Positions 1,596-63,400 are shown, counted from the first letter of the stretch. The stretch is 64,000 nucleotides of DNA from Patescibacteria group bacterium (GCA_041651015.1 JBAZKA010000001.1:62000-125999), one strand, 5' to 3'. Program-made: numbers and translations. Notes: generated by a model from the letters alone, not told the origin.

Positions 1596-1607
1596 TATAA
1601 AATATTT

Positions 1608-3197
1608 ATGTCATTAAAACATCGTCCCGTCGCTTTGATTATCATGGATGGCTGGGGAGTGGCGCCGGACGGCGAGGGCAATGCCATTGCCAAAGCCAAA
1701 ACCCCGCGCCTGGATGAATTCAAGAAAAATTACCCGGTCATGACCTTGACCGCTTCGGGCGCCGAGGTTGGTTTGTCGTTTGGCGAGATGGGCAATTCCG
1801 AAGTCGGGCATTTGAATATTGGCGCCGGGCGCGTCTATTATCAAACTCTGCCCCGCATTGACACTGACGTACGGAGCGGCGCTTTCCTAAACAATCCCGC
1901 GTTTTTGGCTGCGGCCGAACACGCGAAAAAAAATAAATCAAATTTGCATTTGATCGGCTTGGTTTCGGCCGGTAAGGTTCATGCCAGCGATGAACACTTA
2001 CATAAATTATTGGAGTTTGCCAAAAAAAGCGGTTTGTCCAAACAAACTTATGTTCATGCTTTTCTTGACGGACGCGATACGATTTTTAATTCCGGAAAAT
2101 ATTTTATTGAAGTATTGATTAAAAAAATGGAAGAGCTTAAAACCGGCCGGTTGGCGTCGCTGAGCGGACGGTATTGGGCTATGGACCGGGACAACCATTG
2201 GGATAGGATTGAAAAAGTTTATAATATGATGACGACGGGCGAGGCCGAGCGCACGGCGATTGACCCGCTTCAAGCGATTGACGGCGCGTATGCCAATAAA
2301 AATTATGATGAAGAATTTTTGCCCACAGTCCTAACCGATAAGAACAATAAACCGATTGTCACCATCAAAGAAAATGACGCCGTGATATTTTTTAATTTTC
2401 GTCCGGACCGGGCGCGAGAACTGACCAAGGCTTTTGTTTTGCCCGAGTTTGATAAATTTACCCGCGCGCCAATTAAAAATTTATTTTTTGCCACCATGGC
2501 CGAATTTGAAAAGGACCTGCCGGTGGACAAAATAGCTTATCCGCCCGTGGTAATCATAAACGGTTTGGCGGAAATAGTCAGCCGGGCCGGGCTTAAACAA
2601 TTTCACATCGCGGAAACCGAGAAATACGCTCATATCACTTTTTTCTTGAATGGTACACGCGAAGAACCATTTCCGGGAGAAGATAGAAAAATTATTCCTT
2701 CGCCCAAAGTTTCCTCATACGACCAACAGCCGGAAATGTCGGCGCGCGATGTGGCCAAAGAAACAATCAAAGCGATTGAGAGTGGAAGTTATGATTTTAT
2801 TGCCGTGAATTTAGCTAATTCCGACATGGTCGGGCATACCGGTAATTTGGACGCGACCATCAAAGCTTCGGAAACGGTGGACACTTGTGTTGGGGAAATC
2901 GTGGACCATGTGTTGGCCAAAGGCGGCGCTATCGTAATTACCGCCGACCACGGCAATGGTGAAGAAATAATAAATTTGCAGACCGGTGAGATGGATAAAG
3001 AACACTCCACCAATCCCGTGCCGTTATTTGTCATCAGCGCGGATTTGCTTGGTCAAGCCGGACCGGCGGGCGACCCGCCGGAAGGGGACTTGAGCTTGAT
3101 GCAACCGGTGGGAATTTTAGCCGATGTCGCCCCGACTGTTTTGAAAATGTTAGGATTAGAACAACCGCCGGAAATGTCCGGGCAGAGTTTGGTATGA
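1608..3197 (+). CDS. gpmI: iPGM paralog, copy 2 (tandem with copy 1, about 45-50 percent identical by eye)
   Basis: 529 aa; the same MDGWG, TASG, DGRD, ADHGN motifs are retained, so both copies look catalytically intact. Confidence 0.85.
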   Translation: MSLKHRPVALIIMDGWGVAPDGEGNAIAKAKTPRLDEFKKNYPVMTLTASGAEVGLSFGEMGNSEVGHLNIGAGRVYYQTLPRIDTDVRSGAFLNNPAFLAAAEHAKKNKSNLHLIGLVSAGKVHASDEHLHKLLEFAKKSGLSKQTYVHAFLDGRDTIFNSGKYFIEVLIKKMEELKTGRLASLSGRYWAMDRDNHWDRIEKVYNMMTTGEAERTAIDPLQAIDGAYANKNYDEEFLPTVLTDKNNKPIVTIKENDAVIFFNFRPDRARELTKAFVLPEFDKFTRAPIKNLFFATMAEFEKDLPVDKIAYPPVVIINGLAEIVSRAGLKQFHIAETEKYAHITFFLNGTREEPFPGEDRKIIPSPKVSSYDQQPEMSARDVAKETIKAIESGSYDFIAVNLANSDMVGHTGNLDATIKASETVDTCVGEIVDHVLAKGGAIVITADHGNGEEIINLQTGEMDKEHSTNPVPLFVISADLLGQAGPAGDPPEGDLSLMQPVGILADVAPTVLKMLGLEQPPEMSGQSLV

Positions 3198-24523: not shown

Positions 24524-24970
24524 ATGAATAGGAAAGGTTTCACTTTGATTGAGTTGTTGGTTGTAATTGCCATTATCGGTTTGTTGTCCACTCTCTCGGT
24601 GGTCGCTTTGGGTTCTGCTCGTCAGAAATCCCGCGACTCCAAGCGTTTATCGGACTTGAAGCAGGTTCAAACCGCGTTGGAATTGTATTACACTGATAAC
24701 AACACATATCCGACCACGACCGTAACCCTCGGTACCACTGATGCCAAATGTTTGGGCACCAATGGTTTCCACGCCACAGGTGGTTGCTCGGGCACCACTT
24801 ATATGGGTCTTGTCCCGACCGAACCGACACCGGGAGGCACCGGTTATACGTATACCGGAGCGTCTACAACTTTCAGCATCACTGCCACGCTTGAGAGCGC
24901 GGTCAATGATTTACGCGCTGGAGGAATTATTGCTACGCAAAACGGTATCGTCAACGCTTCGTCCACCTGA
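24524..24970 (+). CDS. Type IV pilin / pseudopilin
   Basis: Prepilin leader and N-methylation site MNRKGFTLIELLVVIAIIGLL; Cys pair near the C-terminus. Confidence 0.85.
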   Translation: MNRKGFTLIELLVVIAIIGLLSTLSVVALGSARQKSRDSKRLSDLKQVQTALELYYTDNNTYPTTTVTLGTTDAKCLGTNGFHATGGCSGTTYMGLVPTEPTPGGTGYTYTGASTTFSITATLESAVNDLRAGGIIATQNGIVNASST

Positions 24971-42258: not shown

Positions 42259-42287
42259 TTTACTTTTAACTTGCCGCGAAGCGGCGG

Positions 42288-42681
42288 TGGAGATGGCGAG
42301 AGTCGAACTCGCGTCCAGATGGCCACGCCACAGCCGTCTACATGCTTAGTTCTCTTATTTTTAACCAAACTGTATTCAGAGAACGAAAATTCGTTTGGCG
42401 TGCCGGCTTTGCCTTTCAATTACTTCACCTCCGGCTCGGTTGGTAATCTACGCCTGATGATTTGCGCCGCGTTTAGTTACCAGGTGTGGCTAAGGCGACG
42501 GAAGCGGCAATTAAGCCGCGACAGGAGCAAAACTCATCGCCGGGCTAAAAGCTCGAGCAATGGATGTTTTGACTTTTGAAAATAAGTTGGCACTTATTAT
42601 TTGGTCCATGTATTTACGAGGGTTGGACCGACCTCGGCATGCGAACTATAACGCCGGTCTCTGTCAAAGCCCGGCATCCCC
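42288..42681 (-). ncRNA. ssrA: tmRNA (ssrA)
   Basis: Minus strand starts GGGGATGCCGGGCTTTGACAGAGACCGG... and ends ...GGACGCGAGTTCGACTCTCGCCATCTCCA (tRNA-like T-arm and acceptor). A candidate tag ORF beginning at nt 91 reads GCC AAC ... GTC GCG GCT TAA (ends ...FAPVAA-stop). Lies 2 nt downstream of the smpB stop. Confidence 0.85.
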
Positions 42682-50245: not shown

Positions 50246-50848
50246 ATGGATGAAGTTAAAAAACCGACTTTAGGTACGGATGATCCGGAGGTACTCGCCG
50301 CACTCGCCGCGAAAAAGGCCACGACTGGCAAAGGAGGCACTTCGACCAAGACGGTCAAGGATGCGCTACCGTCCGCCGCGTCATCGATGTCGGTACGATC
50401 AAATGCGGTCGCTGGAGTAATTTTAGTGGGCATTGTGTTCGTCATCGTCATGGGCGGCTTCTTCGTCTACAGCGGGGTAAAAAGCATGCGCGCAGAAGAG
50501 TTTACACCTTCTTCCACCACAGTCGCAGGACTGAACAAACCGTCGACGCCCGTCACCGCTTCTTCCGCGGTCAGCATGAAGTTGGTGATGAACAATCGGT
50601 GTGTCTCTTTGTACGAGGGGCAGACCAAGGGCTTTCTACCGACGGACGTCAGCTGCCTGAACGACAAAGAGTTTAACGGCTATCTCGTTCGCGACATCGT
50701 GAACGAAGATCCGAAAAAACTGTCCCTGTTTTGCTACGGACTGTTTCAGGCGGATCGGGCCGCCGGACTCGAGTGCAGCGGTAAGCAATGGGGACAGATT
50801 TATAGCAAGTTGTCCCCGGGCACCTCGTTTCCTTATGCGGCAAAGTAA
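50246..50848 (+). CDS. Membrane-anchored hypothetical protein (start of the higher-GC block)
   Basis: 200 aa; RBS AAAGGAG; N-terminal TM (GVILVGIVFVIVMGGFFVYSGV); Cys-containing C-terminal domain. Confidence 0.45.
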   Translation: MDEVKKPTLGTDDPEVLAALAAKKATTGKGGTSTKTVKDALPSAASSMSVRSNAVAGVILVGIVFVIVMGGFFVYSGVKSMRAEEFTPSSTTVAGLNKPSTPVTASSAVSMKLVMNNRCVSLYEGQTKGFLPTDVSCLNDKEFNGYLVRDIVNEDPKKLSLFCYGLFQADRAAGLECSGKQWGQIYSKLSPGTSFPYAAK

Positions 50849-51086
50849 ACCTACCTTTTTCGGGTGACAGAAAGAATATTCGCATCATTCCGCGAATATC
50901 TGTTGCCCTCCCAATTAACATCCTGATATTTGTCGGGGTGTTTGAGGAAATTAGTTCATTAAAATTCAAAGGTAAAAAATATTTTCATGCAATTTGCGTC
51001 CTTGGTCGATCACCCGAATGATTCGGATGACGCCAAAGGACGTAAACATTTGCGCGTGAATGCGCAACGAAAAAAAGGAAAAGAAA

Positions 51087-52424
51087 ATGAAAAAGAATCT
51101 GATGTCCGTTCTGTTCTTGGTCGTCGTCCTCGGAGCCAACGTCTCCAGCGCCCAACAAATGTCGTCGGTGTCAAATGCCGATAAGTACTGGGCGCCCCAG
51201 GCCATCGCGAACAAAATGTTCGCCGAGGCCCTGTCGTCTCTGCAAACGCAGATGTTGGTCGTGGCGCCGGCCTGCGAAGCGGCAAAGAGCCAAAGCGCGA
51301 GCTGCACTGCGGCCATCAATCAGATGACCGGGCTGAACGAAACGGTTCAAAATACCGCGGCCAAGGTTCGTCGGCGCGACACCGGCCACTTCACGCCGGC
51401 CCAGGAGAAAAGGATCGTGGAGTTGGCGGCGACTGCAAACTCGGCGACCGAGTCAGCACTCATTAGTGCTGACCAAGGCAAGAGCGAGGAAGTTGTTCTG
51501 GCGGCCAAAGATTTGAAGTCCCGTATGGGCAAGTTGGAGGCCAAGGTCGGATCTCTGGATATGAGAGTGACTGACCACGATGAACAACTGGAAGGTCTCC
51601 AGGCAGCAGTGAAAGTGTTGCAAGACAGCGCGGTGGCCAAGGAAGATCCGGAGCTCGCCGAGCAACTCGCAAATCTTTCCGGGAACACAGCCTCAGCCGA
51701 CAAGCAACTCGCGGATCGGATTCTGCTCATCGCCGAACGAGTGCAAGTGATGGAAAACGCGGCCATGACAAAATCCGATTCCACGGTAGACAAGGCGCAA
51801 TTGGATGCGGCCATGAAAGAAATGGCCGGCGCGTTCAGTAGACGAGTCGCTTCGGTTGAGGCGAAGGCGGAAAACGCTGACGCCAAGGCGGAGCGGGCGA
51901 TGTCGCTCGCCCGGACAAAAAATTCCACCGCCATCATATTGGAGGTGGCGGGCATGGGCGGCGCCTGGTCGCCGTTCATTAAGCAAGTCACTTACGGCGG
52001 AGTCGGTGCCTACCTATCCAAGGGATGGTTGAGGCTCGGTGGTTCGTTTGACCCCGGGTTGGCCTATGTGGACGGGGAGGCGACGTTCGCGTTTACGAAC
52101 AAGCTGGAAGCCTGCTACGCGTGGAAATATGCGTGGCTTGGAGTCTTTAGCGGATCGTATGCCCTTGGCCTGCCGTATAGCGACTCGAACGAGAAGTATG
52201 GCTTCTCCTTCGGCGCAATCGCACGGTTCGTCCTCCCCATGGGCAACACCAACTGGTTTTATGGGTTGGAACTCTACGGAGGCCCGGCTTACGAATCCAA
52301 GTGGGTGCCCAAGGGTCCACCCGCGGGAGCCGCGCCCGGCGCGGTGTACGATGATGAAGAATACAAAACCTTCTTCAAACCGTTTACCGGCGGTGTGCGA
52401 GTATTCATCGATTTTAACCTTTGA
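51087..52424 (+). CDS. Secreted protein: signal peptide + long coiled-coil + C-terminal beta-rich domain (paralog of 53730-54818)
   Basis: ORF track from 51060; Met at 51087 gives MKKNLMSVLFLVVVLGANVSSAQQ; C-terminal alternating hydrophobic/Gly pattern ending GGVRVFIDFNL. Confidence 0.5.
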   Translation: MKKNLMSVLFLVVVLGANVSSAQQMSSVSNADKYWAPQAIANKMFAEALSSLQTQMLVVAPACEAAKSQSASCTAAINQMTGLNETVQNTAAKVRRRDTGHFTPAQEKRIVELAATANSATESALISADQGKSEEVVLAAKDLKSRMGKLEAKVGSLDMRVTDHDEQLEGLQAAVKVLQDSAVAKEDPELAEQLANLSGNTASADKQLADRILLIAERVQVMENAAMTKSDSTVDKAQLDAAMKEMAGAFSRRVASVEAKAENADAKAERAMSLARTKNSTAIILEVAGMGGAWSPFIKQVTYGGVGAYLSKGWLRLGGSFDPGLAYVDGEATFAFTNKLEACYAWKYAWLGVFSGSYALGLPYSDSNEKYGFSFGAIARFVLPMGNTNWFYGLELYGGPAYESKWVPKGPPAGAAPGAVYDDEEYKTFFKPFTGGVRVFIDFNL

Positions 52425-52681
52425 ACATTTATCCGGGCGCTTGAATAAAATCCGTATCCTACCTTTACGGAATCAAGCGCCCTCCTCACCTTTGAACATA
52501 AGATTTGTTTTCAGAGGCGAGAGAGAAAAAATATATCAAAAAACTCAGCCATAGCGGCCGAGTTTTTTGTTTGAAGTTTTGTATTTTTACTTTTCAGAAA
52601 ACTTGTGTTGCCACCAGTGTTCTGAAGAGCCGAGGACGAATTCGTGTGAGTGAATTCGTCCTCGCAAAGAGCTTGGCGCCA

Positions 52682-53113
52682 TCACGGCGCGTTGACGAGC
52701 GAGGCGCATTGGTCACGCCCGGGCGTACCGACCGAGCCGCAACACCAGTCAATGGCCTGCAACTCAGTGATGGCCGGCAACCCGCGAGCGGGTCGCGTCC
52801 GCGCTTCACGGAAGCAGGCGACGTACGCGACGTCGTCCGGGTTGACGGTCGCTGCTTGCGGCAGCACCGCGTTCGGTGCCGAAGAGGTTTTTGCCGCCGG
52901 GCAATCGCTGCCGTCGCAGTTGGTTTCGCGGGTAACCATCCCCTTGACATTGTTCATGTCGAGAACGAGTTTGGTGATGTAACGGTACATCCCCGCGTCG
53001 TAGAAGATGAACCCGAAAAGAATCACCGTACACGCCCAAGGGAACACTTTGAGGAACCTTTCCATTATGCTATCTCCTTTGTGTTGTTTGACTTTTGCCG
53101 TTTTTACAAACAC
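52682..53113 (-). CDS. Small membrane-anchored Cys-rich hypothetical protein (uncertain; high-GC region)
   Basis: TM helix FPWACTVILFGFIFYDAGMY then Cys-containing domain; competes with the overlapping plus-strand ORF 52505-53218, which lacks features. Confidence 0.3.
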   Translation of the reverse strand: MFVKTAKVKQHKGDSIMERFLKVFPWACTVILFGFIFYDAGMYRYITKLVLDMNNVKGMVTRETNCDGSDCPAAKTSSAPNAVLPQAATVNPDDVAYVACFREARTRPARGLPAITELQAIDWCCGSVGTPGRDQCASLVNAP

Positions 53114-53328
53114 CTCGCACCGCGCGAGATGTTCACGTTCAACGGCAAAAATTTTAAAGAACAGAATAATATATCACAAATTGGATTATTTGTCAAATGC
53201 CCCGGGCTCGGCAGATAGAGTGAGGGTCTTGCCCCCGTCACCAATAATAAACATCTATTTGCAGAAAAATCGTTACTGACGACGAGTAAATGCAATATGC
53301 AAATATATTCCCAAAATTGGTGAGGGGC

Positions 53329-53357
53329 TTGACAAAACCCTCAAAATGTGCTATACT
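53329..53357 (+). promoter_or_regulatory. Sigma70 promoter (family member 2 of 4)
   Basis: TTGACA, 17-bp spacer AAACCCTCAAAATGTGC, TATACT (TGc extended -10). Confidence 0.6.
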
Positions 53358-53363
53358 GGTTTT

Positions 53364-53470
53364 AATAAAATTCAAATTGACTTTGATTGCGCAACGAGAG
53401 AGGCGCGGTCAAAGCCCGAAAAAGCCTGAAATATATTTATCGGACTCTCTCATTGTAGAGAGTTTTTGTG
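53364..53470 (+). ncRNA. Candidate small RNA: promoter-proximal ~105-nt unit ending in a GAGAGAG/CTCTCTC hairpin plus T-run (copy 1)
   Basis: CGAGAGAGGCGCGGTCAAAGCCCGAAAAAGCCTG...CGGACTCTCTCATTGTAGAGAGTTTTTGTG, immediately followed by a second identical-type promoter; similar cassette at 57479-57600. Confidence 0.4.
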
Positions 53471-53498
53471 TAATATAAGCCAATCAGGAGGTAGAATG

Positions 53499-53527
53499 TT
53501 GACAAAATAGGCAAAATGTGCTATACT
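53499..53527 (+). promoter_or_regulatory. Sigma70 promoter (family member 3 of 4)
   Basis: TTGACA, 17-bp spacer AAATAGGCAAAATGTGC, TATACT. Confidence 0.6.
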
Positions 53528-53729
53528 TTCATGTTAAATTACAAACAGTTTTTCACCCAATCTTGCGCCTTCTAACAGAGCGGACGCAGGCAGAGTCAAA
53601 AACTCTGGCAGTGAAGCTCTTTTTACTTACAAGGCAGGAATAAAATAAAAAACGTTCGCTACAAAATGGCCGGCCACGGGTCGGTCAGGAAAGCCCTGGC
53701 TCATAGAGCGGGGCATAGGAGAGACGAAG

Positions 53730-54818
53730 ATGAAGACGAAATTGGCATTTGCGATTTTCGCGATGGTGATGGTGGCGACGGGGTCGGCAATGGCGCAATG
53801 GGCGCAGGAGCCGATGGACGATCTAAAGACCCTGCAACAGTGCAGGGCATCGTTCAAAAACGTGTGCGCGCCCTGCGCAAGCGTTTTCGCTTCCGGCCAG
53901 CTGAGTGCCACGTGCACCATGGAAAAGGCACAGGCGTGCGGCGAAGTCTACACCGGCATCTGCGGTCAGACCGCGAAAGCCGCTGCGACAACGTCGCCGT
54001 CCGTGCCGCCGAAGTGCGACGACAGATGTAGGGAGCGTCGCAAGGCCCGACAGGAAAAGTGGAATGCGCTCTTCCTGGACATGGCGGACCTGAAGGTCCG
54101 CGTGGCCGCCCTGGAAAGGAGAGCGGACGAGAACGACACACGCGACGCGGCGAATGCCGCGCACGACAGCGACCAGGACAACCTGATTGCTGGTCTTCGC
54201 AAGGACGTGGACGGCCTCCTGGATTGTCATGGTGAAAATCCGAAGGCGGGTTGCCACCAGGCAATTGAGGAGCAGATCGATGAGGCGAAGAAGGAGGCGA
54301 TGGACTACACGGATATGATGTTCATATCCACCGCCTTCAAGTTCGACCTCGGAGCGGTCGTCCTCGGCTCCACGGATTTCCGAGGGGTTGGGATCATAGC
54401 TGGCGGATTGCGCATTGCTCTTGACTTCGGCGCAACCGATCGGTTCCGTCCCGTTTTCCACGCTTCGGTTGGCGGTGGTCACGGACGGTGGGCAAACGTG
54501 GTTTGGGAAGTCGGCACTTCCCAGGAAATTCGTGTTAACGACAAGGGGACTGTCTGGCTAGGGCCGGCGGTCACCTGGTCACACGAAAACGTCCTGGACG
54601 CCAACTACAACACGTTCCTCGGCCTCGGCCTCTCCCTCAGAGTGTTGTTCCCCGAGAGCCACCACGGGTATTTTACCGCGGCGGTCTTCGGCGGTGACAA
54701 CATGTACTTCGTCCCGGACAAAACGGGCGAGTACGATGAGGTCATGGCCCATCACTTCGGAATTGGGATCCAACTCTCGGTTGGATACTCCATTTTCCAA
54801 GACCTCCGCAAGAAGTAG
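53730..54818 (+). CDS. Secreted protein: signal peptide + Cys-containing N-region + coiled-coil + C-terminal beta-rich domain (paralog of 51087-52424)
   Basis: RBS GGAGAG; MKTKLAFAIFAMVMVATGSAMAQ signal peptide; same architecture as 51087-52424. Confidence 0.5.
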   Translation: MKTKLAFAIFAMVMVATGSAMAQWAQEPMDDLKTLQQCRASFKNVCAPCASVFASGQLSATCTMEKAQACGEVYTGICGQTAKAAATTSPSVPPKCDDRCRERRKARQEKWNALFLDMADLKVRVAALERRADENDTRDAANAAHDSDQDNLIAGLRKDVDGLLDCHGENPKAGCHQAIEEQIDEAKKEAMDYTDMMFISTAFKFDLGAVVLGSTDFRGVGIIAGGLRIALDFGATDRFRPVFHASVGGGHGRWANVVWEVGTSQEIRVNDKGTVWLGPAVTWSHENVLDANYNTFLGLGLSLRVLFPESHHGYFTAAVFGGDNMYFVPDKTGEYDEVMAHHFGIGIQLSVGYSIFQDLRKK

Positions 54819-55007
54819 TAGTTCTCCTGTCTTTTACGGTCAGGGTATTCGCAAGAATATCCTGACCGACCTTATCTTGATCAAAAATGGTTTTGGTCAA
54901 GTAGGGGAAAATACTTAGTTAGTTGCTTGACAATTAAATTAAGGGTTAGAAAAACGTTCGTGGACAAAGCCAGCGCGCGGCGTTGGTTTCAAAAAAGGGA
55001 GAACAAA

Positions 55008-56378
55008 ATGAAGAAGTTTTACGGAATGATGATTGTTGCTATGATGGCGGTCGGATGCAACGAAGGCTACGGCATCGGCGATAAGTTTTTCGCTGAAGTC
55101 GACGCCGGTTCGGACACCGACACGGACACCGACACCGATACGGACACGGATAGCGACAGCGACACCGATTCCGATACGGACACGGACACCGACACGGATA
55201 CCGATACCGACACCGATTCCGATACGGACACGGACACCGACACGGATACCGATACCGATACGGATACGGACACGGGCGAGTGCGAGGATGGTGAAGAGCA
55301 GTGTGACGGAAACATGGTTCAGGTTTGCGGCGACGACCACGAGTGGGCGAACTGGGACGAGTGTCTCGCGTCTGCTCACAAGGAGTGTGTCGAGGCCAGC
55401 TCGACCTCCGCGAACTGCGACTGCGTCTCCGGTTACCACCTGTCCGCAGGCAACTGTGTCGCGGACACGGTCGTGATCTGCACCGCTGGCTACGAGGAAT
55501 GTGACACGGATGGAAACGTTCTGGTTTGCAACTCGGCCGGCACTGCGTGGGTGGTGGACGACACTTGCCTCGCCACGAACCATGAAGAGTGTATCGAGGC
55601 CAGCTCGACCTCCGCGAACTGCGACTGCGTCTCCGGTTACCACCTGTCCGCAGGCAATTGTGTCGCGGACACGGTCGTGGTCTGCACGGCCGGCAACAAG
55701 GAGTGCGACACGGCCGGCAACGTTCTGGTTTGCAACTCGGCCGGCACTGCGTGGGTGGTGGACGACACTTGTCTCGCCTCCGCTCACGAGAAGTGCGTCG
55801 AGACCAGCTTGACCTCTGCCTCGTGCCAGTGCGTGGATGGGTACTATCTGTCCGTGGGTGTCTGCATCGCGGACACCGACACTGACACCGACACTTCGGT
55901 CGAATGCACGGACGACGGTGGCGAGTGCGCCTTGGGTTACGAATGTAAGGCGGGGCATTGTGAAATGCCCTGCGACTGGGAGAACCCTTGTGACATGGCC
56001 TCCGGTTTAGAATGCTTTTTGACCGGCAAGGATCCCGACCAGAACTGGAAGTTCTCCGGGATCTGTCTTCCCATGCCGGCGGCAACGGGCGAATTCAGTT
56101 CCGTATGGTACTACGACATGGAACTGGAGAACGATGAGGACACGGGTACGTGTGCGTATTACGATACGTACTCTCCGTCCCCGACGGAGTACTCGTCGCC
56201 AGACACCGCCGCGGCCAGCATCATGTGCACCGATAATTCGTCGGTGCCGTGGGTCATGGAGGGCGAGTTCGAAGATCCGAGCACGTCGTCCGCTCGGACC
56301 CACCTGATCGCCCACGGCGATCATAACCACCAGATGACGACTTTCGGGCGTATCCTGTATACGCCCCCCGTCCTCTGA
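55008..56378 (+). CDS. Lipoprotein with (Thr-Asp/Ser-Asp)n tracts and tandem EGF-like Cys-rich modules (ORF track from 54927; Met at 55008 with GGGAG RBS)
   Basis: Lipobox MMAVGC; ~55 residues of TD/SD dipeptide repeats; two and a half near-identical modules containing CDCVSGYHLSAGNC (CxCxxGYxLxxxxC, EGF-like). Confidence 0.6.
   Translation: MKKFYGMMIVAMMAVGCNEGYGIGDKFFAEVDAGSDTDTDTDTDTDTDSDSDTDSDTDTDTDTDTDTDTDSDTDTDTDTDTDTDTDTDTGECEDGEEQCDGNMVQVCGDDHEWANWDECLASAHKECVEASSTSANCDCVSGYHLSAGNCVADTVVICTAGYEECDTDGNVLVCNSAGTAWVVDDTCLATNHEECIEASSTSANCDCVSGYHLSAGNCVADTVVVCTAGNKECDTAGNVLVCNSAGTAWVVDDTCLASAHEKCVETSLTSASCQCVDGYYLSVGVCIADTDTDTDTSVECTDDGGECALGYECKAGHCEMPCDWENPCDMASGLECFLTGKDPDQNWKFSGICLPMPAATGEFSSVWYYDMELENDEDTGTCAYYDTYSPSPTEYSSPDTAAASIMCTDNSSVPWVMEGEFEDPSTSSARTHLIAHGDHNHQMTTFGRILYTPPVL
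55110..55275 (+). repeat. Hexanucleotide (GACACN/GATACG)n microsatellite encoding the TD/SD tract
   Basis: About 27 consecutive GAYWCN hexamers visible in the sequence. Confidence 0.9.
55357..55760 (+). repeat. Tandem ~200-bp near-identical direct repeats encoding the EGF-like modules
   Basis: 55360-55560 and 55570-55760 align with few mismatches. Confidence 0.8.
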
Positions 56379-56486
56379 CATGTTCTTTGAGCCTCGAATT
56401 CCTTTCGAGGTATATGCCCGGGCAGAGCTTATCTGCCCCAATCATATGGCATCATTTATCTCTCAAATGATCCCAGATGTAAACAA

Positions 56487-56518
56487 AAAACTCCGATTCG
56501 TCGGAGTTTTTTGTTTGG
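56487..56518. terminator. Bidirectional terminator between the lipoprotein gene and the methyltransferase gene
   Basis: AAAAAACTCCGA-ttcg-TCGGAGTTTTTTGTTT. Confidence 0.8.
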
Positions 56519-56525
56519 GAAAAAA

Positions 56526-57344
56526 TTATTTTTTTCTAAATATTACACACTTGGTATCAGTGCATTGCTTTGCGTAATTATTGTATTCATCAATTGTCGC
56601 CTTCGGTTGATACATTAGGTAATCAACATTTTTTATTATCTCAACAGCGGGGGAGACGGCTTCAAAAATTTTATCCCACTCAATGTAATCTTCGGGAAAA
56701 ACGTGGATATCACCTTCGCGCTGGTATTTCTTGTTAATAAATAATTTTATGAAAACCGTTTTGACAAAATCCCAAGTTAAAAATTCACCGGTTCGTAAAA
56801 TAAATTTGGTGCGCTCGGCTTTTGTTTGTTTGGTTTTGGCGTTGTATTCGGCGAGGACAACGTCCGGGTACCAGCGGTGTTCGTTGGCTTCATGGTCAAT
56901 GTATATTAGACCGCCCGGTTTTGCTACGCGGATCATTTCTTTGATCGCGGAAATATAATCGGGAATATGGTGCAGCACCGAATACACGGCGACAATATCA
57001 AAGTGGTCATCTTCAAAAGGTAATTTTTTACCGTCAAATAGTGCAGTCTCTATATTGAGCGCCGAGTATTGGTTTTGTAAAATTTCCAATGAAACTGATG
57101 AGAGATCGCAAGCGATAACCTTGGCGCCTTTTTCCGCAAATATTCTACTGAGATTACCGGTGCCGGCGCCGTAATCTAAAACAACCGGAGAGTTTATTTT
57201 TGTTAAACTTATTACCTCGGCAATAGTCTCCCCCAGACGTCTTTGTTCAACCGGATTGTAAATTTCCGTGTGCTTGGTATTGTATATGTAGGCATTACGG
57301 TCGTGTTGTTTGCGATTTTTTGTGATTATATGCTCGTTGGACAT
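56526..57344 (-). CDS. Class I SAM-dependent methyltransferase (Methyltransf_11-like)
   Basis: 272 aa; motif I VLDYGAGTGNLS, post-I acidic (ACDLS), PGGLIYI motif. Confidence 0.8.
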   Translation of the reverse strand: MSNEHIITKNRKQHDRNAYIYNTKHTEIYNPVEQRRLGETIAEVISLTKINSPVVLDYGAGTGNLSRIFAEKGAKVIACDLSSVSLEILQNQYSALNIETALFDGKKLPFEDDHFDIVAVYSVLHHIPDYISAIKEMIRVAKPGGLIYIDHEANEHRWYPDVVLAEYNAKTKQTKAERTKFILRTGEFLTWDFVKTVFIKLFINKKYQREGDIHVFPEDYIEWDKIFEAVSPAVEIIKNVDYLMYQPKATIDEYNNYAKQCTDTKCVIFRKK

Positions 57345-57449
57345 ATTTAGATATTAGTAATAATTTCACCATATATTATAGCCCTTTTTTCTAAAATACA
57401 AAAGTTTTTGCGCTAAATTTGGTGCGGCAGACGAAAAAGGCGCTTGCTA

Positions 57450-57478
57450 TTGACAAAAACTCTAAAACATGCTATTAT
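57450..57478 (+). promoter_or_regulatory. Sigma70 promoter (family member 4 of 4)
   Basis: TTGACA, 17-bp spacer AAAACTCTAAAACATGC, TATTAT. Confidence 0.6.
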
Positions 57479-57700
57479 ATGATGTTAAAATTAAAGGGAC
57501 AAATGCACGCGATTTGACGGTGAGAGAGCCGTAAAATTCGCATAAATTTGAAAAAACTCTCTCACGGGAGTTTTGTTTGAGTGGAGTTGTCGCTCGGATG
57601 CAAATTGTATCAAAGCGACAGGGCCGCCCCCTCAACATGGGTATATCATAGTCATGTTGAGGGGGTTGCTCTCCCTATGCCTTTGCGTTTTATGCGCGTG
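57479..57700 (+). ncRNA. Structured leader / candidate sRNA copy 2 plus a 13-bp perfect hairpin
   Basis: GTGAGAGAG...CTCTCTCACGGGAGTTTTGTTTG is analogous to 53395-53470; hairpin CCCCCTCAACATG...CATGTTGAGGGGG at 57622-57664. Confidence 0.4.
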
Positions 57701-57817
57701 GCCAAAAGAGTTTCTTTGACAATTTAATTATTGGATTTAGTTAGTTTGAGATAAGGAAAACAACCAAATGCGATTTTGGAAATCGCAAAAGATTCCGGAA
57801 ACGGAATGGAGGAAGAA

Positions 57818-60490
57818 ATGGAAAAGAGATTTTTGTTTTGTTTCGTTGCCATCGTCGCGGCTATCGCGTGTTCGCCGAACACACGAGAGCCCCATCAGTC
57901 GGTAGTGCCGCCGGATTCAGATTCGTCTACGTCCGACACGGATACCGACACCGACACGGACACAGATTCCGACACAGATTCCGATTCGGATAGCGACAGC
58001 GATTCCGACACGGACACGGACACCGACACCGACACGGACAGTGATTCGGATACGGACAGCGACACGGATACGGATTCGGACACAGATTCGGATTCGGATA
58101 CGGATAGCGACACGGATTCGGACACGGACGTGGACGCCGGCACGGATGCCGGCACCGATGGCGGGACCGATGGCGGTCTCGACGGCGGTTCGGATACCGA
58201 CACGGATACGGATAGCGATTCCGATTCTGACACAGACTCGGATAGCGACACGGATTCGGACGCCGGAACCGACGGTGGCGTAGAGCCGACCGAGTGCTCC
58301 AGTGGCGTTTGCTGCGACACGGTGACCGGACTCTTCAAGGACGATACCGTCATTTGCGGGACGTCGTTAGAGTTGAGGTGCGATGACACCGGTTGCAGCG
58401 CTGACGTTAGGAATGCCTACGTCATTACCAGCTGTCCCGGATATTCCGAGGACTGCGAAGGAATAGAGGAGGTGTTTACCAGCAGCGTCGTGGACGACTG
58501 CGGTGACAATGAAACCTGCGAAGCTTCCACCGCTCTCTGCGTCGAATGTGAGTTCGGCTGTGAAGACGATTCCTTTGGAGTCGGAACGTGCAGCGAAGAA
58601 CCCATCGTCATTGACGCCGGAGTGGACTCCGGAACTTCGGACACCGACACCGACACGGACAGTGATTCGGATACGGACAGCGACACGGATACGGATTCGG
58701 ACACAGATTCGGATTCGGATACGGATAGCGACACGGATTCGGATACGGACGTGGACGCCGGCACGGATGCCGGCACCGATGGCGGGACCGATGGCGGTCT
58801 CGACGGCGGTTCGGATACCGACACGGATACGGATAGCGATTCCGATTCTGACACAGACTCGGATAGCGACACGGATTCGGACGCCGGAACCGACGGTGGC
58901 GTAGAGCCTCCGACCGAGTGCGTGGCTGACGACCCGTGCTGTGACAGCGAGGGGTTCTACCTCGCCAACGGCACCGAGTGCGACGGTGGTACTGTGCTCT
59001 CGATCTGCGAGAGCGGGTACTTCTGTGACGGCGTCGGCGATTGCATGCTCGAGTACGTCCCCGCGTCGGACAATAAGGTCTGCGATAGCGATATCGCCGA
59101 CCTTTGTGACGCCGTGGATTACTGCGACGGTAGCGGAGGTTGCCCAGACGCGGTCCTGTCGTACGGCGATGATTGTCATGCATCCGAAGGGGCGTGTGAC
59201 GTTCAAGACATCTGCAACGGGCTCGGCAAGGATTGTCCTGATGAGCTTCTCGTCGGCGATACCTGCCGACCGGCCGTTGTTGGTGGATGCGACATCGCGG
59301 AGACCTGTTCTGGTTCTTCTCCGGACTGTCCGGCTGACGTGGTTGCTTTGGCAACGACTGTCTGCCGTGCGGCATCCGGGGTTTGCGATAAGGCCGAGAA
59401 CTGCACAGGCAGTTCGGCTACTTGCCCGGCGAACACGTTTGAGTCGGCCGCCACAGTGTGCGCGTCCAGTTACGTGTATCAGTGCAACGGCAATCTGTGC
59501 GGGTCCGATGCTCAACGGCGTCTGGTGAGGCAGTATTGTACTGGTAGCGCGGCTGCTTGCAGTGGCACTATCTACTACAACCCCTGGACCACCATCGCCA
59601 ACTGCGACGCATCGGCCATCTGCATTTCCACTTCTACCTCAGCCATGTGTTCCGAGTGCGGTTACGCTTGCCAGGACATCCCGGCAGGGACGTGTGTTGG
59701 TGAAGAAGGACAGCCGTGTGCCGAAGCTCCTTTCGAGGAGTGCGAAAGCGACGACCTGTTCTGCGACACCGACGACGTCTGCAGTGATGCTCCGGACGGC
59801 GGCATTGCCGACGGTGGCGTAGACGGTGGTTCCGATACGGACACCGACGCAGATACCGACACGGACACGGATACGGATAGCGATTCGGACACGGATGCCG
59901 ATGCCGGCCTTGATGGCGGCTCGGATACGGACACCGATAGCGACACGGATTCCGATTCCGACAGCGATGCCGGTACTGACACGGACACTGAGACTGACAC
60001 GGATACCGACACGGGCACCGAAGGAACTTTCTGTCTTGAAAAAGCAGACTGTTCCGAGGGAGAGTACTGCAATCTGGAGACGAGCCTCTGTACGCTCGTG
60101 CCGGAGTTCCCGTTACCTGCGGGACAGTACTTCTATTGCTGGGGATACAACATCACTCATGATCCCAGCAATGTGGTGTCGCAGTGCACGACAAGCTCTA
60201 CTTCCACTTGCACCTACTACGATCCGGCGGCGTCACAGCAGTATTCCGCCACGGTGTCGCTCTACTGCATCTTGGATCAGTACGGCACCACGTCCACCCC
60301 CACCTGTCCCGCGGTGCAGGACATCGGCGAGTGTTGCATCTCCGGGCAGACTGATTTCGTTGCGCGGTACGCCGCGCCGGAAGAATGCAACGACGCTGAC
60401 ACGGACAACGATCCGGTTGGTGGATGTTCTTCCTACCGCCAATGCTTGAGGGGAAGTGATGGTCACTTCCTCGCCGAAGGCCTGTTCTAG
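57818..60490 (+). CDS. Large lipoprotein with three (TD/SD)n-GTDGG tracts and multiple Cys-rich repeat modules (ORF track from 57776; Met at 57818 with GGAGGAAG RBS)
   Basis: Lipobox VAAIACS; Asp-rich dipeptide tracts; ~24-aa Cys motifs (CDxxxxCDGxGxCPD) repeated at least 6 times; about 890 aa. Confidence 0.6.
58021..58905 (+). repeat. Two ~270-bp near-perfect direct repeats (58021-58290 and 58636-58905) inside the lipoprotein gene, each largely composed of GAYWCN hexamers
   Basis: The two copies differ at about one position by eye; a third related tract lies at 59823-60020. Confidence 0.9.
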
Positions 60491-60693: not shown

Positions 60694-62214
60694 ATGACAA
60701 AAAATATGAACAAACTATTTCCTCTCAACACCGAAACAAAACGGATTTTGTTTTGGACTATTGTCAGCATCGCGGTCATGTCCACCTATATGATAGCCGG
60801 AATGATTTTCGGGTCATCCATGATAATGCTGCTCTTCGCGCTGATAGTGGTTTTTTTATCCACGGTCATGCACCCGCAAGTTGGCATCTATACAATTTTG
60901 ATTTGTACCATGTGGTTTGAGCGATATTTTACGCTCGCGCCCATCACCATTGGCAGTGTTGTCTATAAAATTTATCCGCTGGATTTTTGTATTTTATTTT
61001 TAGCTTTGAGTTTGGTCGCCAGATTGGTAGAAGGAAAAATTAAATTTAAAACCCAAGCGCTTGACTGGTTTATTTTGGTTTTTGGCGGAGTGTGCACCTT
61101 GAGTTTGTTATCGTCGTATTGGCGCGGGTTGGATATGGCCGTGGCTGTCGGTACCTACAAAAATTATTTTCTTTACGCTGTTTTATACGTGATACTTACT
61201 ATCGTTATGCAGACCAAGGAGGAGTGGGTCAGGCTTCTGAACTGGCTTATCGCGGCCGGCTTTGGTTTATTCTTTTTCCTTTTTTACGGACTAATTGCTG
61301 GCCATGGACTTTGGAGTGAATATACTCCGTTATCCACGTCCGGCGAACGCCTGATCGCCGGCACCCATATTTTTTATTTGATGTTATTTTTATTTTGGCT
61401 CGCGGCCGCTTATCTCTACCGTGAAGTCAAAGAAAAAAATAAATGGCAATCAGTGGCTGTGATTGTGGGCATGTCGCTGGCCGGTCTCGCGCTGGTAGTC
61501 TCGCTTGTGCGCCATCTGTGGTTGGCCGTGCCAACTGTTTTAATTTTTTGGATTATATTTTTACCGACTATGCGCCGTCGGTTAAAATTTTTAATTTTGA
61601 TCGGAATAGTCGGCGCGCTGACCGCGGTGTTGACTTTTATTTTTATTTATTCCGGACGCGTTATTCACGGCTCCAATGCCGGGCAGACTTTTGCCAATAC
61701 ATCGGAGGTTTTGAGTCAGAGAACTGACATAGAAAATGTGACCAGCGGAAACGACTCCAGTTTTTCTTGGCGTTTGGCGGTCTGGAAAGTCGGTTTTTCC
61801 GCTTGGTTAACGCATCCATTTTTTGGTTTGGGATTGGGCCATCGTATCACCGGGTTGATAAATAATTGGCCTTTTGATATCGCCCTGCGCGAGATACACA
61901 ATGATTATCTGGCTATGCTTTACCAGATGGGCGTGGTCGGGTTGATTGCCGTCTTAGAATTCTTGGTTTTCCTTTGGTATATTTTTTTTCACGATAGAAG
62001 TTTCTTACTTGATAATGAATCGCTTGACGGCCGATTGTTCTTTTCGTTTTGGAGCATGGCGATATTATTTATGATTGGTTTTCTTGTCTCGGTTTATTGG
62101 GATGTAAATTTCTTTGTCATTTGGTGGTGGCTCGCCATTGCCGGCCTGCGGTTTGTTTGCATGCGACAACCCGTCACCACCAAAATTTTTTATGAAGATA
62201 CTTCAGATAAATAA
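60694..62214 (+). CDS. O-antigen ligase/polymerase-family (Wzy_C) membrane protein
   Basis: 506 aa, about 12 TM; conserved H...NDYLAMLYQMGVVG motif in a periplasmic loop. Confidence 0.7.
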   Translation: MTKNMNKLFPLNTETKRILFWTIVSIAVMSTYMIAGMIFGSSMIMLLFALIVVFLSTVMHPQVGIYTILICTMWFERYFTLAPITIGSVVYKIYPLDFCILFLALSLVARLVEGKIKFKTQALDWFILVFGGVCTLSLLSSYWRGLDMAVAVGTYKNYFLYAVLYVILTIVMQTKEEWVRLLNWLIAAGFGLFFFLFYGLIAGHGLWSEYTPLSTSGERLIAGTHIFYLMLFLFWLAAAYLYREVKEKNKWQSVAVIVGMSLAGLALVVSLVRHLWLAVPTVLIFWIIFLPTMRRRLKFLILIGIVGALTAVLTFIFIYSGRVIHGSNAGQTFANTSEVLSQRTDIENVTSGNDSSFSWRLAVWKVGFSAWLTHPFFGLGLGHRITGLINNWPFDIALREIHNDYLAMLYQMGVVGLIAVLEFLVFLWYIFFHDRSFLLDNESLDGRLFFSFWSMAILFMIGFLVSVYWDVNFFVIWWWLAIAGLRFVCMRQPVTTKIFYEDTSDK

Positions 62215-63400
62215 ATTTTTTTATCGCCGAGGCGGAGCCGACCATCATTTTATGGATTTGGTTGATTTGTTGCACGAAAAAGGCGAAGGAGTATTTGTCT
62301 TTTCCATGCGCGACAAACGCAATAAGTCGAGCGATTACGAAAAATATTTTGTCTCCAACATTGAATTCGGTAAATTAAATTTGGCCGCTCTTCTGCGTCC
62401 GTTTAGAGTGATATATTCTTTTGAAGCGGCGAGAAAATTGCGTCGTTTAATTCGCGAGGCTCGTCCGGATATCGCGCACGTGCATTTGATTTACCATCAT
62501 CTGTCGCCATCTGTTTTGGCGGTTCTGAAACAAGAAAAAATTCCCGTGGTTATGACGATTCATGATTGGAAACCGCTTTGTCCGAATTATCTGATGTTTA
62601 CCGAAGGCGCGATTTGTGAACGTTGCCGCGGTGGTCATTATGTTCAGGCGGCCAAGCATCGTTGTATCCACAATTCTTGTCCGCAAAGTATTTGGGCCGC
62701 GTTTGAGGCTTATGTTTATCATGCTAAAAATTATTACGAAGAGTATGTGGATTTATATATTGCCCCGAGCGAATTTGTAAAAACAATGTTTATTAAATGG
62801 GGTTTTCCGGCGGACAAAATTCTGGTGTTGCCTCACTTTTTATCGCCGTCAATTGTCCGCGAACAAACCTCAATTACAGCGCCGGCTAAACCGGAGTTTG
62901 TTTTTGTCGGGCGTCTGAACGCGGAAAAGGGGATTATGACTTTGGCAAGAAAATGGGCGAGCGAAAAAATTTTATATCCTCTGCATGTATTTGGCGACGG
63001 GCCGCTCGCGCCTCAACTTAGAAATTTCGTGGAGGACAATCGATTGCGAAATATTATTTTACACGGCGCAGTACCGCGCGAGGAAATCAGCCAACGTTTG
63101 CGCGCCATGACCGCATTGATTGTGCCAAGTGAGTGGTATGAAATTTTTGGTTTGGTGGCGATTGAAGCATGGGCGCAAGGTGTGCCGATTATTACCTCAA
63201 ATTTCGGCGCTTTACCCGAGCTGGTTAAAAATTCCGGCGCCGGTATTGTGATGGATTTTAAAAATGATAAACTTTCCGATGTCCTGTCCGCCATTACCGA
63301 CCAAAAATATCGCGATAACGCCGTATCGTATATGTCCGGCCATCACTTGGCTGATGAATATTACCGAAAATTATTACATATTTATAAAATGGTTGTGTAG
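62192..63400 (+). CDS. Family 4 glycosyltransferase (ORF track from 62114; Met at 62192 = MKILQINKFFYRRGG)
   Basis: GT4/GT-B pattern including EWYEIFGLVAIEAWAQGVPII (E-x7-E); overlaps the ligase gene end by 23 nt. Confidence 0.8.
   Translation: MKILQINKFFYRRGGADHHFMDLVDLLHEKGEGVFVFSMRDKRNKSSDYEKYFVSNIEFGKLNLAALLRPFRVIYSFEAARKLRRLIREARPDIAHVHLIYHHLSPSVLAVLKQEKIPVVMTIHDWKPLCPNYLMFTEGAICERCRGGHYVQAAKHRCIHNSCPQSIWAAFEAYVYHAKNYYEEYVDLYIAPSEFVKTMFIKWGFPADKILVLPHFLSPSIVREQTSITAPAKPEFVFVGRLNAEKGIMTLARKWASEKILYPLHVFGDGPLAPQLRNFVEDNRLRNIILHGAVPREEISQRLRAMTALIVPSEWYEIFGLVAIEAWAQGVPIITSNFGALPELVKNSGAGIVMDFKNDKLSDVLSAITDQKYRDNAVSYMSGHHLADEYYRKLLHIYKMVV

Follow-up and report, generated by a model that had tools for sequence, protein, structure and literature searches.

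The window analysed here is a stretch of 64,000 nt, one strand read 5' to 3', from a Patescibacteria group bacterium (GCA_041651015.1, JBAZKA010000001.1:62000-125999), and its parent is a 286,515-bp contig of a Patescibacteria metagenome-assembled genome (NCBI proteins MFA51274xx, locus tags WC457_). Two genes within positions 55008-60490 are predicted to encode Cys-rich lipoproteins, referred to below as A and B, which between them contain long runs of Asp-Thr and Asp-Ser dipeptides, a large direct repeat and tandem Cys-rich modules. The parts of the two genes are as follows:

55008-56378, plus strand: lipoprotein A gene, 456 amino acids (aa) from the ATG; the mechanical open reading frame (ORF) opens at TTG 54927.
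55113-55274, plus strand: acidic tract of A, 27 in-frame hexamers, (D[TS])27, of 7 hexamer types, with no more than two identical neighbours.
55160-55258, plus strand: perfect 48-bp unit, repeated 2.06 times in the A tract, the longest perfect tandem repeat of the tracts.
55362-55565 and 55566-55769, plus strand: two tandem 204-bp (68-aa) Cys-rich modules of A, the same at 182 of 204 bases (89%).
55770-55895, plus strand: partial third module of A, 74% identical over 107 nt (55770-55876), then (DT)4 at 55872-55895.
57818-60490, plus strand: lipoprotein B gene; translation from the ATG gives 890 aa, and the ORF itself begins at TTG 57776.
57935-58138, plus strand: B tract 1, 34 hexamers of 12 types.
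58017-58297, plus strand: copy X1 of the large direct repeat (end of tract 1, an 18-residue linker, tract 2 and 11 further residues).
58193-58264, plus strand: B tract, 12 hexamers.
58298-58637, plus strand: unique segment between the X copies, a short Cys-rich domain (domain A), which from the translation starts CCD..G.F.
58638-58921, plus strand: copy X2 of the large direct repeat, with 1 mismatch in 269 bp and a 3-bp insertion at 58907-58909.
58640-58759, plus strand: B tract, 20 hexamers.
58814-58885, plus strand: B tract, 12 hexamers.
58907-59821, plus strand: disintegrin-like Cys-rich repeat region, motif C..A.G.CD.AE.C.G.S..CP.D.
59834-59905, plus strand: B tract, 12 hexamers.
59924-59971, plus strand: B tract, 8 hexamers.
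59834-60012, plus strand: C-terminal acidic tract group of B, including a 13-residue stretch up to 60012; it precedes the C-terminal domain.

Read from the N-terminus, lipoprotein A consists of a signal peptide, a lipobox (MAVG-C), the Asp-Thr/Ser tract, the Cys-rich modules and a Cys-rich C-terminal domain. In lipoprotein B, a lipobox (AIA-C) is combined with six acidic tracts, which account for 196 of 890 residues, with two disintegrin-like parts (a short domain and a long repeat region) and with a Cys-rich domain at the C-terminus. The lipoboxes were judged by eye from the translations, and both proteins match the pattern [LVI][ASTVI][GAS]C, A with MKKFYGMMIVAMMAVG-C and B with AIA-C. Neither lgt nor lspA, the genes for lipoprotein maturation, lies within the window. 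An earlier note on this DNA had placed about 27 hexamers at 55110-55275 and several tracts in 57925-60020, in agreement with the 27 found at 55113-55274 and the six found within 57935-59971. Its two ~270-bp copies differing by about one base are likewise confirmed, at 269 bp and one mismatch, with its coordinates off by 2-5 bases. The 904-aa lipoprotein gene that it described is real but has 890 aa when counted from the ATG at 57818. The ~200-bp modules of its 483-aa lipoprotein (456 aa from the ATG) also exist, at 204 bp, but at 89% identity (74% for the third) they are not near-identical.

The modules of A score just under the gathering score of the Pfam epidermal growth factor (EGF) family (PF00008; 20.9 against 21.5 bits). 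The centre of B (58907-59821) has 228 homologs, with up to 40-50% identity, and the 120 that were listed all carry a precomputed PF00200 assignment; the named sources among them are Myxococcota, Binatia, 'Deltaproteobacteria', oomycetes and a green alga. Its direct match to PF00200, at 28.2 bits, is under the gathering score of 35.1, and a profile made from 24 sequences of these homologs matches PDB structures of snake-venom metalloproteinases in their disintegrin domains (atragin, catrocollastatin and bothropasin; E 8e-8 to 2e-6). Judging by these profile matches, the centre of B is likely homologous to the disintegrin domain. Domain A of B resembles the end of the long Cys-rich region. The possibility that the tract was inherited together with the disintegrin domain was considered and rejected: one of 128 proteins (the 120 listed homologs and 8 window-cluster proteins) has such a tract, (DG)n, and D[TS] occurs in none.

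Two further assemblies contain material of the window, namely ENA ERZ27247363 (MEGAHIT, k=141) and the Logan assembly of SRR8542065, and the three show 100% identity across all overlaps. The 269-bp copies (58017-58285 and 58638-58906) differ at one position (C at 58123, T at 58744). Beyond the 3-bp indel the match between X1 and X2 runs 12 bases further, and the starts of the two copies lie 621 bp, i.e., 207 codons, apart. In the k141 assembly, the left-hand contig ends at 58264, which is 58123 + 141, position 58123 being the sole base that separates the 269-bp copies, and the right-hand contig begins at 58768, 140 bases ahead of the insertion at 58907-58909. Since these ends sit exactly where 141-mers lose uniqueness between the copies, both 269-bp copies are real in the reads. 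A check of assembly support for the large duplication, which the earlier note had proposed, therefore came out in favour of it: an independent assembly agrees, and its contig breaks match two true copies.

The tracts are built of the in-frame hexamer GAY-(ACN/TCN/AGY). Six-fold GAYNNN has 90 matches in the 64-kb window, all within genes A and B, with 0 expected from 100 shuffles, and Tandem Repeats Finder reports a period of 6 at 55113-55273 (26.8 copies, 80% matches). However, identical hexamers are never adjacent in runs of more than two, and each tract contains 7-12 hexamer types. Against permutations in which synonymous codons swapped places within each amino acid, the A tract has as many adjacent identical hexamer pairs as expected (4 observed, 4.5 expected), and the other tracts are similar. 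An exact 51-nt self-match at offset 48 in the A tract of the window, and an exact 63-nt self-match at offset 66 in the A tract of the relative described below, were each reached by 0 of 2000 such permutations. The perfect 48-bp unit in the A tract is the trace of a recent segmental duplication. Considering the scrambled codons, the few identical neighbours and the block self-matches, the tracts are old protein-level repeats with drifted codons and occasional block duplications, and not the hexanucleotide microsatellites for which they had been taken. Selection for codon scrambling was also considered (GAC:GAT is 124:107 within tracts, as against 157:82 in the rest of these genes; Fisher p 0.009), but this count includes duplicated copies and was not relied on. 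Protein repeats with scrambled codons resemble microsatellites by eye and should not be expected to slip alike, which is a caution for repeat scans.

With its tract removed, lipoprotein A found no homolog in a set of 5.8 billion proteins and none in a JGI metagenome scan, and an exhaustive search of representatives with lipoprotein A gave 4 weak Cys-rich hits. Its orthologs were reached only via the neighbouring 362-aa gene (53730-54818), which has a relative at 54% identity that led to syntenic contigs from at least seven samples of an ENA project labelled GROS21-1. The gene order common to the window and this relative is 362-like gene, A ortholog, methyltransferase, B ortholog, Wzy_C, glycosyltransferase family 4 (GT4) and GHL15/FG-GAP. 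Amino-acid identities are 59-89%, and the synonymous sites are saturated (synonymous divergence, dS, 0.9-2.1). The differences between the window and the orthologs of A and B concentrate at third codon positions in the plus frame, which settles the coding strand of both genes. In the non-tract parts, the ratio of nonsynonymous to synonymous divergence (dN/dS) is 0.15 for A and 0.17 for B, values that indicate purifying selection on the heads of both proteins. At the level of these sequence comparisons, purifying selection on the non-repeat parts does not fit antigen-like diversification.

The lipoboxes of the relative read ...VMASG-C in A and ...IFAAG-C in B. A third, more distant lineage is represented by contig L023, whose metagenome is one that a landfill study mentions. 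In its A-like gene, the lipobox (...LVAVG-C) is accompanied by ~22 D[TS] units and by Cys-rich modules in tandem; the signal peptide, lipobox and tract of A are thus kept in three lineages. The next gene on this contig (3732-3999) is B-like, with the lipobox ...VVSS-C followed by a nearly perfect GACACGGACACC (DTDT) tract within which the contig ends, and as far as its sequence goes this tract is much closer to a true microsatellite. The methyltransferase was also tried as a synteny anchor in GTDB genomes and was rejected, since the 16 loci obtained, at no more than 57% identity, were in unrelated taxa and without synteny.

Every repeat class differs in copy number between the window and the relative, and each difference in length is divisible by three. 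For the A tract, the counts are 27 hexamers in the window and 20 or 31 in the relative, whose shorter allele carries a 66-bp block once and whose longer allele carries it twice. The 68-aa (204-bp) module is present in exactly one copy more in the window's A than in that of the relative, which has one. In the relative's B, a Cys domain is flanked by near-identical tract-linker copies, as in the window, and tract-plus-domain-A units of ~620 bp number one in the window and at least two in at least one sample of the relative (anchor spacing, 624 bp in the window and 618 bp in the relative). Repeat number is therefore not uniform when a syntenic relative is compared, as the earlier note had suggested checking across strains. 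The in-frame length variation that it foresaw from slipped-strand mispairing and recombination is indeed seen, but hexamer slippage is not, the units observed being 48, 66, 204 and ~620 bp. The flanking X copies are 99.6% alike within the window genome and 92-100% alike within the relative, as against 76-83% between the species. Since synonymous sites are saturated and identity is higher within than between species, the copies evolve in concert, i.e., they keep exchanging sequence.

Of the alleles of the relative, that with 20 units was found in two samples (L021 and L025) and that with 31 units in three (L022, L024 and L026), and the first 1984 bases are identical across all five contigs. The GROS21-1 samples concerned are SAMEA9560560, SAMEA9560946, SAMEA9560935, SAMEA9560955 and SAMEA9560957. 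Between L021 and L022, the rest of ~11 kb is 100% identical once the tract, some mismatches next to the indel and the 100-N tract region of B are set aside; L030 and L031 gave no further alleles. Hypervariable repeats in an otherwise clonal population would be expected to give this picture. The sequences are suggestive of a 20/31-hexamer polymorphism that is probably real, but, coming from short-read scaffolds, it is unproven.

By analogy, the locus would work most like the Ser-Asp stalk of the Clf/Sdr adhesins and the size-variable repeat surface proteins. The Clf/Sdr adhesins also have a long Asp-Ser dipeptide tract of degenerate 6/18-bp units, variable in length among strains, between the anchor and the binding domain, and the staphylococcal SD tract is a wall-spanning stalk that is O-glycosylated by SdgA/SdgB (PMC3794999, PMC8561734). 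The NCBIfam models of ClfA, ClfB, SdrC and SdrD match A and B in their Ser-Asp repeat regions only (E 1e-37 to 8e-41 for B), and the whole-protein scores are far under the cut-offs (139.5 vs 2500 and 135.4 vs 1150 bits). LPXTG was not found in the translations of A and B, which end ...AEGLF and ...TPPVL, and Pfam gave no hit to the Clf/Sdr A domain. Unlike in the Clf/Sdr proteins, the anchor of A and B is a lipobox at the N-terminus and not LPXTG at the C-terminus, Thr and Ser are equally frequent in the tracts, with Thr in about half of the dipeptides, and the heads are Cys-rich and EGF-like or disintegrin-like rather than IgG-like A domains. On this evidence from their translated sequences, A and B are not members of the Clf/Sdr family.

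The nearest precedent within the same radiation, the Candidate Phyla Radiation (CPR), comes from a Gracilibacterium, whose surface protein with PTD repeats was described by Sieber et al. (2019; PMC6851277). This protein shares with A and B an N-terminal anchor and an extracellular part, an Asp/Thr repeat kept at the protein level by several synonymous nucleotide variants, an assembly break at the locus and atypical Asp codon usage. However, its unit is a 9-bp tripeptide in perfect-repeat blocks, with read-level heterogeneity reported, whereas here the unit is a dipeptide without perfect runs, there are several Cys-rich domains, and comparative evidence points to module gain and loss. In the Vlp, Vsa and Vpma systems of mycoplasmas, too, the genome is small and lipoproteins occur as size variants by virtue of tandem repeats in frame (PMC6080569). 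They differ in that size variation is accompanied by phase switching (promoter homopolymer tracts or site-specific inversion) and by multigene families; no switch element or gene family was seen at the A/B locus. With the mycoplasma lipoproteins and the codon-scrambled Gracilibacterium protein known, such a feature can hardly be called unexpected in a reduced genome, as it had been. Contingency loci of Haemophilus and Neisseria also have repetitive DNA within surface-protein genes, but the repeats here are impure, their unit is a multiple of three and there is no on/off outcome. In the streptococcal M protein and the yeast FLO/ALS adhesins, recombination of intragenic repeats changes modules and length in frame, as seems to be the case here (PMC2187625, PMC3537727); the organisms, domains and anchors are unrelated, and functional consequences are known there. 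Lastly, the centre of B shares the motif C..CD..E.C.G.S..CP.D with PF00200 and Myxococcota Cys-rich repeat proteins, in keeping with the match of its profile to venom disintegrins, but B is without a metalloprotease domain and the 120 listed homologs are without D[TS] tracts.

The coding sequences around A and B differ from the rest of the window in their G+C content at third codon positions (GC3):

50246-50848, 51060-52424, 52682-53113 (minus strand), 53730-54818, 55008-56378 and 57818-60490: coding sequences with high GC3.
56526-57344, minus strand: class I S-adenosylmethionine-dependent methyltransferase gene between A and B, with host-like GC3.

Except for the methyltransferase gene, the coding sequences in 50246-60490 have a GC3 of 0.64-0.77, as against 0.42-0.54 in other genes, and the intergenic spacers have 38-47% GC. 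Two-fold codons flip in the cluster (TTC 0.69 vs 0.15, AAG 0.68 vs 0.20, AAC 0.74 vs 0.29), and the codons of Ala, Gly and Pro are unchanged. This so far unexplained excess, again limited to coding sequence, recurs in the relative (0.71-0.76; L025) and in the third lineage (0.78-0.84; L023). Since it occurs in three lineages despite saturated divergence, it is maintained and not the fading trace of a recent import. As a mark of high expression, high GC3 met with weak evidence against it, the type IV pilin gene (24524-24970) having a GC3 of just 0.55. An island integrated at the transfer-messenger RNA (tmRNA) or a tRNA was rejected, because the tmRNA (42285-42681) and tRNA-Asp lie at least 7.5 kb from the GC3-rich block, with host-like genes between.

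We propose, with a probability of roughly 0.6, that A and B are conserved Cys-rich surface lipoproteins with acidic stalks, whose length and modules change in frame by recombination between longer repeats. The lipobox signal peptide would give each protein a lipid anchor at its N-terminus, and both proteins would be exposed at the cell surface. The Asp-Thr/Asp-Ser tracts would be extended, negatively charged spacers that keep the disulfide-rich modules off the membrane, and the heads would be disulfide-rich binding modules, EGF-like in A and disintegrin-like in B. In Staphylococcus aureus ClfA, display of the binding domain outside the wall requires a Ser-Asp region longer than a certain minimum. 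The tracts would be cryptic repeats in which the dipeptide is kept and the codons are shuffled, and since the codons are shuffled, single-hexamer slippage would not be favoured. Length would instead change through misalignment of, or recombination between, longer repeats, i.e., tract segments of 48 and 66 bp, the module of 204 bp and, delimited by the 269-bp copies, the unit of ~620 bp. Since the repeat units are all multiples of three, spacer stretches or whole modules could be gained or lost without a break of frame. The 269-bp copies would be homogenised by gene conversion or unequal exchange. In model bacteria, recombination rates of ~1e-6 to 1e-4 per generation apply to direct repeats with a length and a spacing of a few hundred bases each. 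What the sequences show is the architecture, the orthology, purifying selection outside the tracts, a change of copy number in each repeat class and concerted evolution; exposure at the surface, the roles as spacer and adhesin, the pathway of recombination and an adaptive value, if there is one, are inferred.

Several points weigh against this proposal. The spacer and adhesin roles of A and B are suggested by analogy with other proteins. Every sequence used derives from short-read metagenome assembly, and the lone domain-A unit between the 269-bp copies in the window could be a collapsed count. In the relative, the short allele equals the long allele minus one 66-bp loop, which is also plausible assembler output. 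All of the relative's scaffolds have a 100-N gap in the tract region of B, with resolved parts that are 13 mismatches apart, and its module counts are therefore lower bounds. Finally, with tract lengths of 20-31 units in three lineages and heads under purifying selection, the variation may be neutral turnover.

Neutral turnover would mean that the tracts are low-complexity, disordered linkers whose length is without functional consequence, at a locus that is not tuned for variability, and we regard it as a serious alternative, though a rather unlikely one. Both the confinement of tract length in the three lineages and the purifying selection on the non-tract parts are consistent with it, as is the generic nature of the mechanism seen. 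However, it sits less easily with the retention of a pure D-[TS] tract over saturated synonymous divergence, with the active homogenisation of the 269-bp copies, or with changes that are confined to these genes when the 11 kb around them is identical between samples; none of these points proves an adaptive value. We give little credence to a classical contingency locus, in which hexamer slippage would be frequent in replication and repeat number would vary rapidly and reversibly within a clone. The strong period of 6, the breaks of short-read contigs inside tracts and the near-perfect GACACGGACACC tract of the distant relative, with a contig ending inside it, speak for such a locus. Yet the tracts do not consist of uninterrupted identical short units (there are at most two identical adjacent hexamers and 7-12 types per tract, in an order indistinguishable from random synonymous permutation), and two independent assemblies of the sample agree on the 27-unit tract. 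The differences seen are blocks of 48-66 bp or larger, none of them a single unit. Nor does repeat number switch or grade expression, since units and indels are multiples of 3 (6, 48, 66, 204 and 618-624 bp) inside coding sequence and every change is in frame. Two of the three defining features of contingency loci are thus absent, and the locus, which had been called contingency-locus-like, shows size variation without on/off switching and is not a contingency locus in the strict sense.

Recent import of the cluster from a GC-rich diderm (e.g., a myxobacterium), with repeats and composition taken from the donor, is suggested by its GC3 relative to the neighbouring genes, by the mainly Myxococcota, Binatia and Deltaproteobacteria names among the listed disintegrin homologs (plus oomycetes and a green alga) and by the modelling of the neighbouring 362-aa protein as an 8-strand barrel like that of outer-membrane proteins (OMPs). 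It is nevertheless quite improbable. A coding-only GC3 excess with AT-rich spacers, present in three lineages at saturated divergence, points to a composition that is old and maintained, and the cluster contains a host-like methyltransferase gene and host-like promoters. None of the 128 proteins (the 120 listed disintegrin homologs and 8 window-cluster proteins) has a D[TS] tract, the single tract among them being (DG)n, and lipoprotein A and the 362-aa protein are without relatives outside a small group in the libraries searched. Mis-assembly of repeats, as a source of the 269-bp near-identity or of the allele differences between samples, might be thought of, considering that the data are short reads throughout, that gene B has a 100-N gap in all scaffolds from the relative, that the relative's short allele is the long one with one loop skipped, and that these scaffolds are inconsistent with each other inside repeats. 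We hold it to be highly improbable, since the three assemblies of the window are 100% identical in their overlaps and the k141 contigs end exactly k from the only discriminating sites, the arrangement of a domain between two X copies is also found in the relative, and the extra 204-bp module and the species-specific tract sequences, which lie in gap-free sequence, cannot be assembly effects.

CPR/Patescibacteria are thought to live attached to other cells, and to our knowledge almost no attachment proteins of CPR have been described. The locus supplies concrete, conserved candidates for such proteins, with a lipid anchor, an acidic stalk and a disulfide-rich head, and in-frame change of stalk and modules makes length heterogeneity directly testable. 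A bolder version, which we consider unlikely, would be that A and B, two secreted coiled-coil proteins (one of them with the OMP-like barrel model) and a small-RNA-like leader form a conserved Patescibacteria surface cassette. In this cassette, coding-only codon usage would have been held off the genome norm (GC3 0.7-0.8 vs 0.45-0.5) through saturated divergence, and recombination of intragenic repeats would adjust the length of the stalks and the number of modules to suit attachment to host cells. Such a cassette, if true, would amount to an attachment apparatus peculiar to the lineage, in which modular variability is built in and composition follows a gene-specific rule without known cause.

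The secreted 362-aa protein (53730-54818) is strongly conserved in its C-terminal half and variable in its N-terminal half, which is of Cys/coiled-coil type, and the product of 51060-52424 is probably similar. The C-terminal half was modelled, with moderate confidence, as an 8-strand beta-barrel (predicted local distance difference test score, pLDDT, 60-82; 52 for the whole model), and the best Foldseek matches of the barrel model are NspA, OmpW, Ail, OmpX and OmpA. If the model is right, an OMP-like barrel would be unexpected in a lineage that is usually described as lacking an outer membrane. Ahead of this gene, at 53329-53472, a strong promoter (TTGACA-17-TATACT) is followed by a ~105-nt unit, within 53358-53472, that ends in a hairpin and a U-run, and the same is seen at ~75-221 of L021 and ~185-330 of L023. 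This unit is ~97% identical in the relative and ~85-90% identical in L023, and the adjacent protein just 42-60%. It folds at -31.1 kcal/mol (z -3.4), and its 5' GAGAGAG could compete with the terminator stem CTCTCTC/GAGAG. We regard it as a candidate small RNA or attenuating leader. A look-alike of this unit lies upstream of B, within 57450-57590: its promoter occupies 57450-57478, the unit itself runs from about 57479 to 57575, and it has a GTGAGAGAG...CTCTCTCAC stem with a U-run. A conserved GGGCCGCCCCCTC/GAGGGGG hairpin comes next, at 57620-57672. The leader of B (~470 nt), comprising this unit and the hairpin, is kept in the relative with a mean column identity of 85%, and no Rfam family was found for the conserved leader or small-RNA-like units.

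The nearest relatives of the methyltransferase, at no more than 57% identity, are patchily distributed over Bacilli, Methanoperedens and other archaea, Saccharibacteria and Bacteroidales, which suggests that the gene may move between distant lineages. After B, at 60694-63400 and continuing on L029/L004, both species have Wzy_C (O-antigen-ligase-like), GT4 and GHL15/FG-GAP genes. Wzy_C enzymes include protein O-oligosaccharyltransferases, and glycosylation of the Ser/Thr-rich stalks is for that reason conceivable, as a speculation. An SdgB-like glycosyltransferase next door was considered and rejected, the GT4 protein (62192-63400) matching generic GT4 structures only.

Lipoproteins A and B and their orthologs are all absent from a collection of 15 billion proteins. 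JGI/ENA calls put antisense ORFs over A, at 54939-55958 and 56007-56441 on the minus strand (339 and 144 aa) and at 1824-3326 of L001. Repeat-rich, GC3-rich genes of the A/B kind are systematically missed by gene callers. At the opposite end of the window, 21-3197 holds two tandem paralogs of cofactor-independent phosphoglycerate mutase, of 524 and 529 aa.

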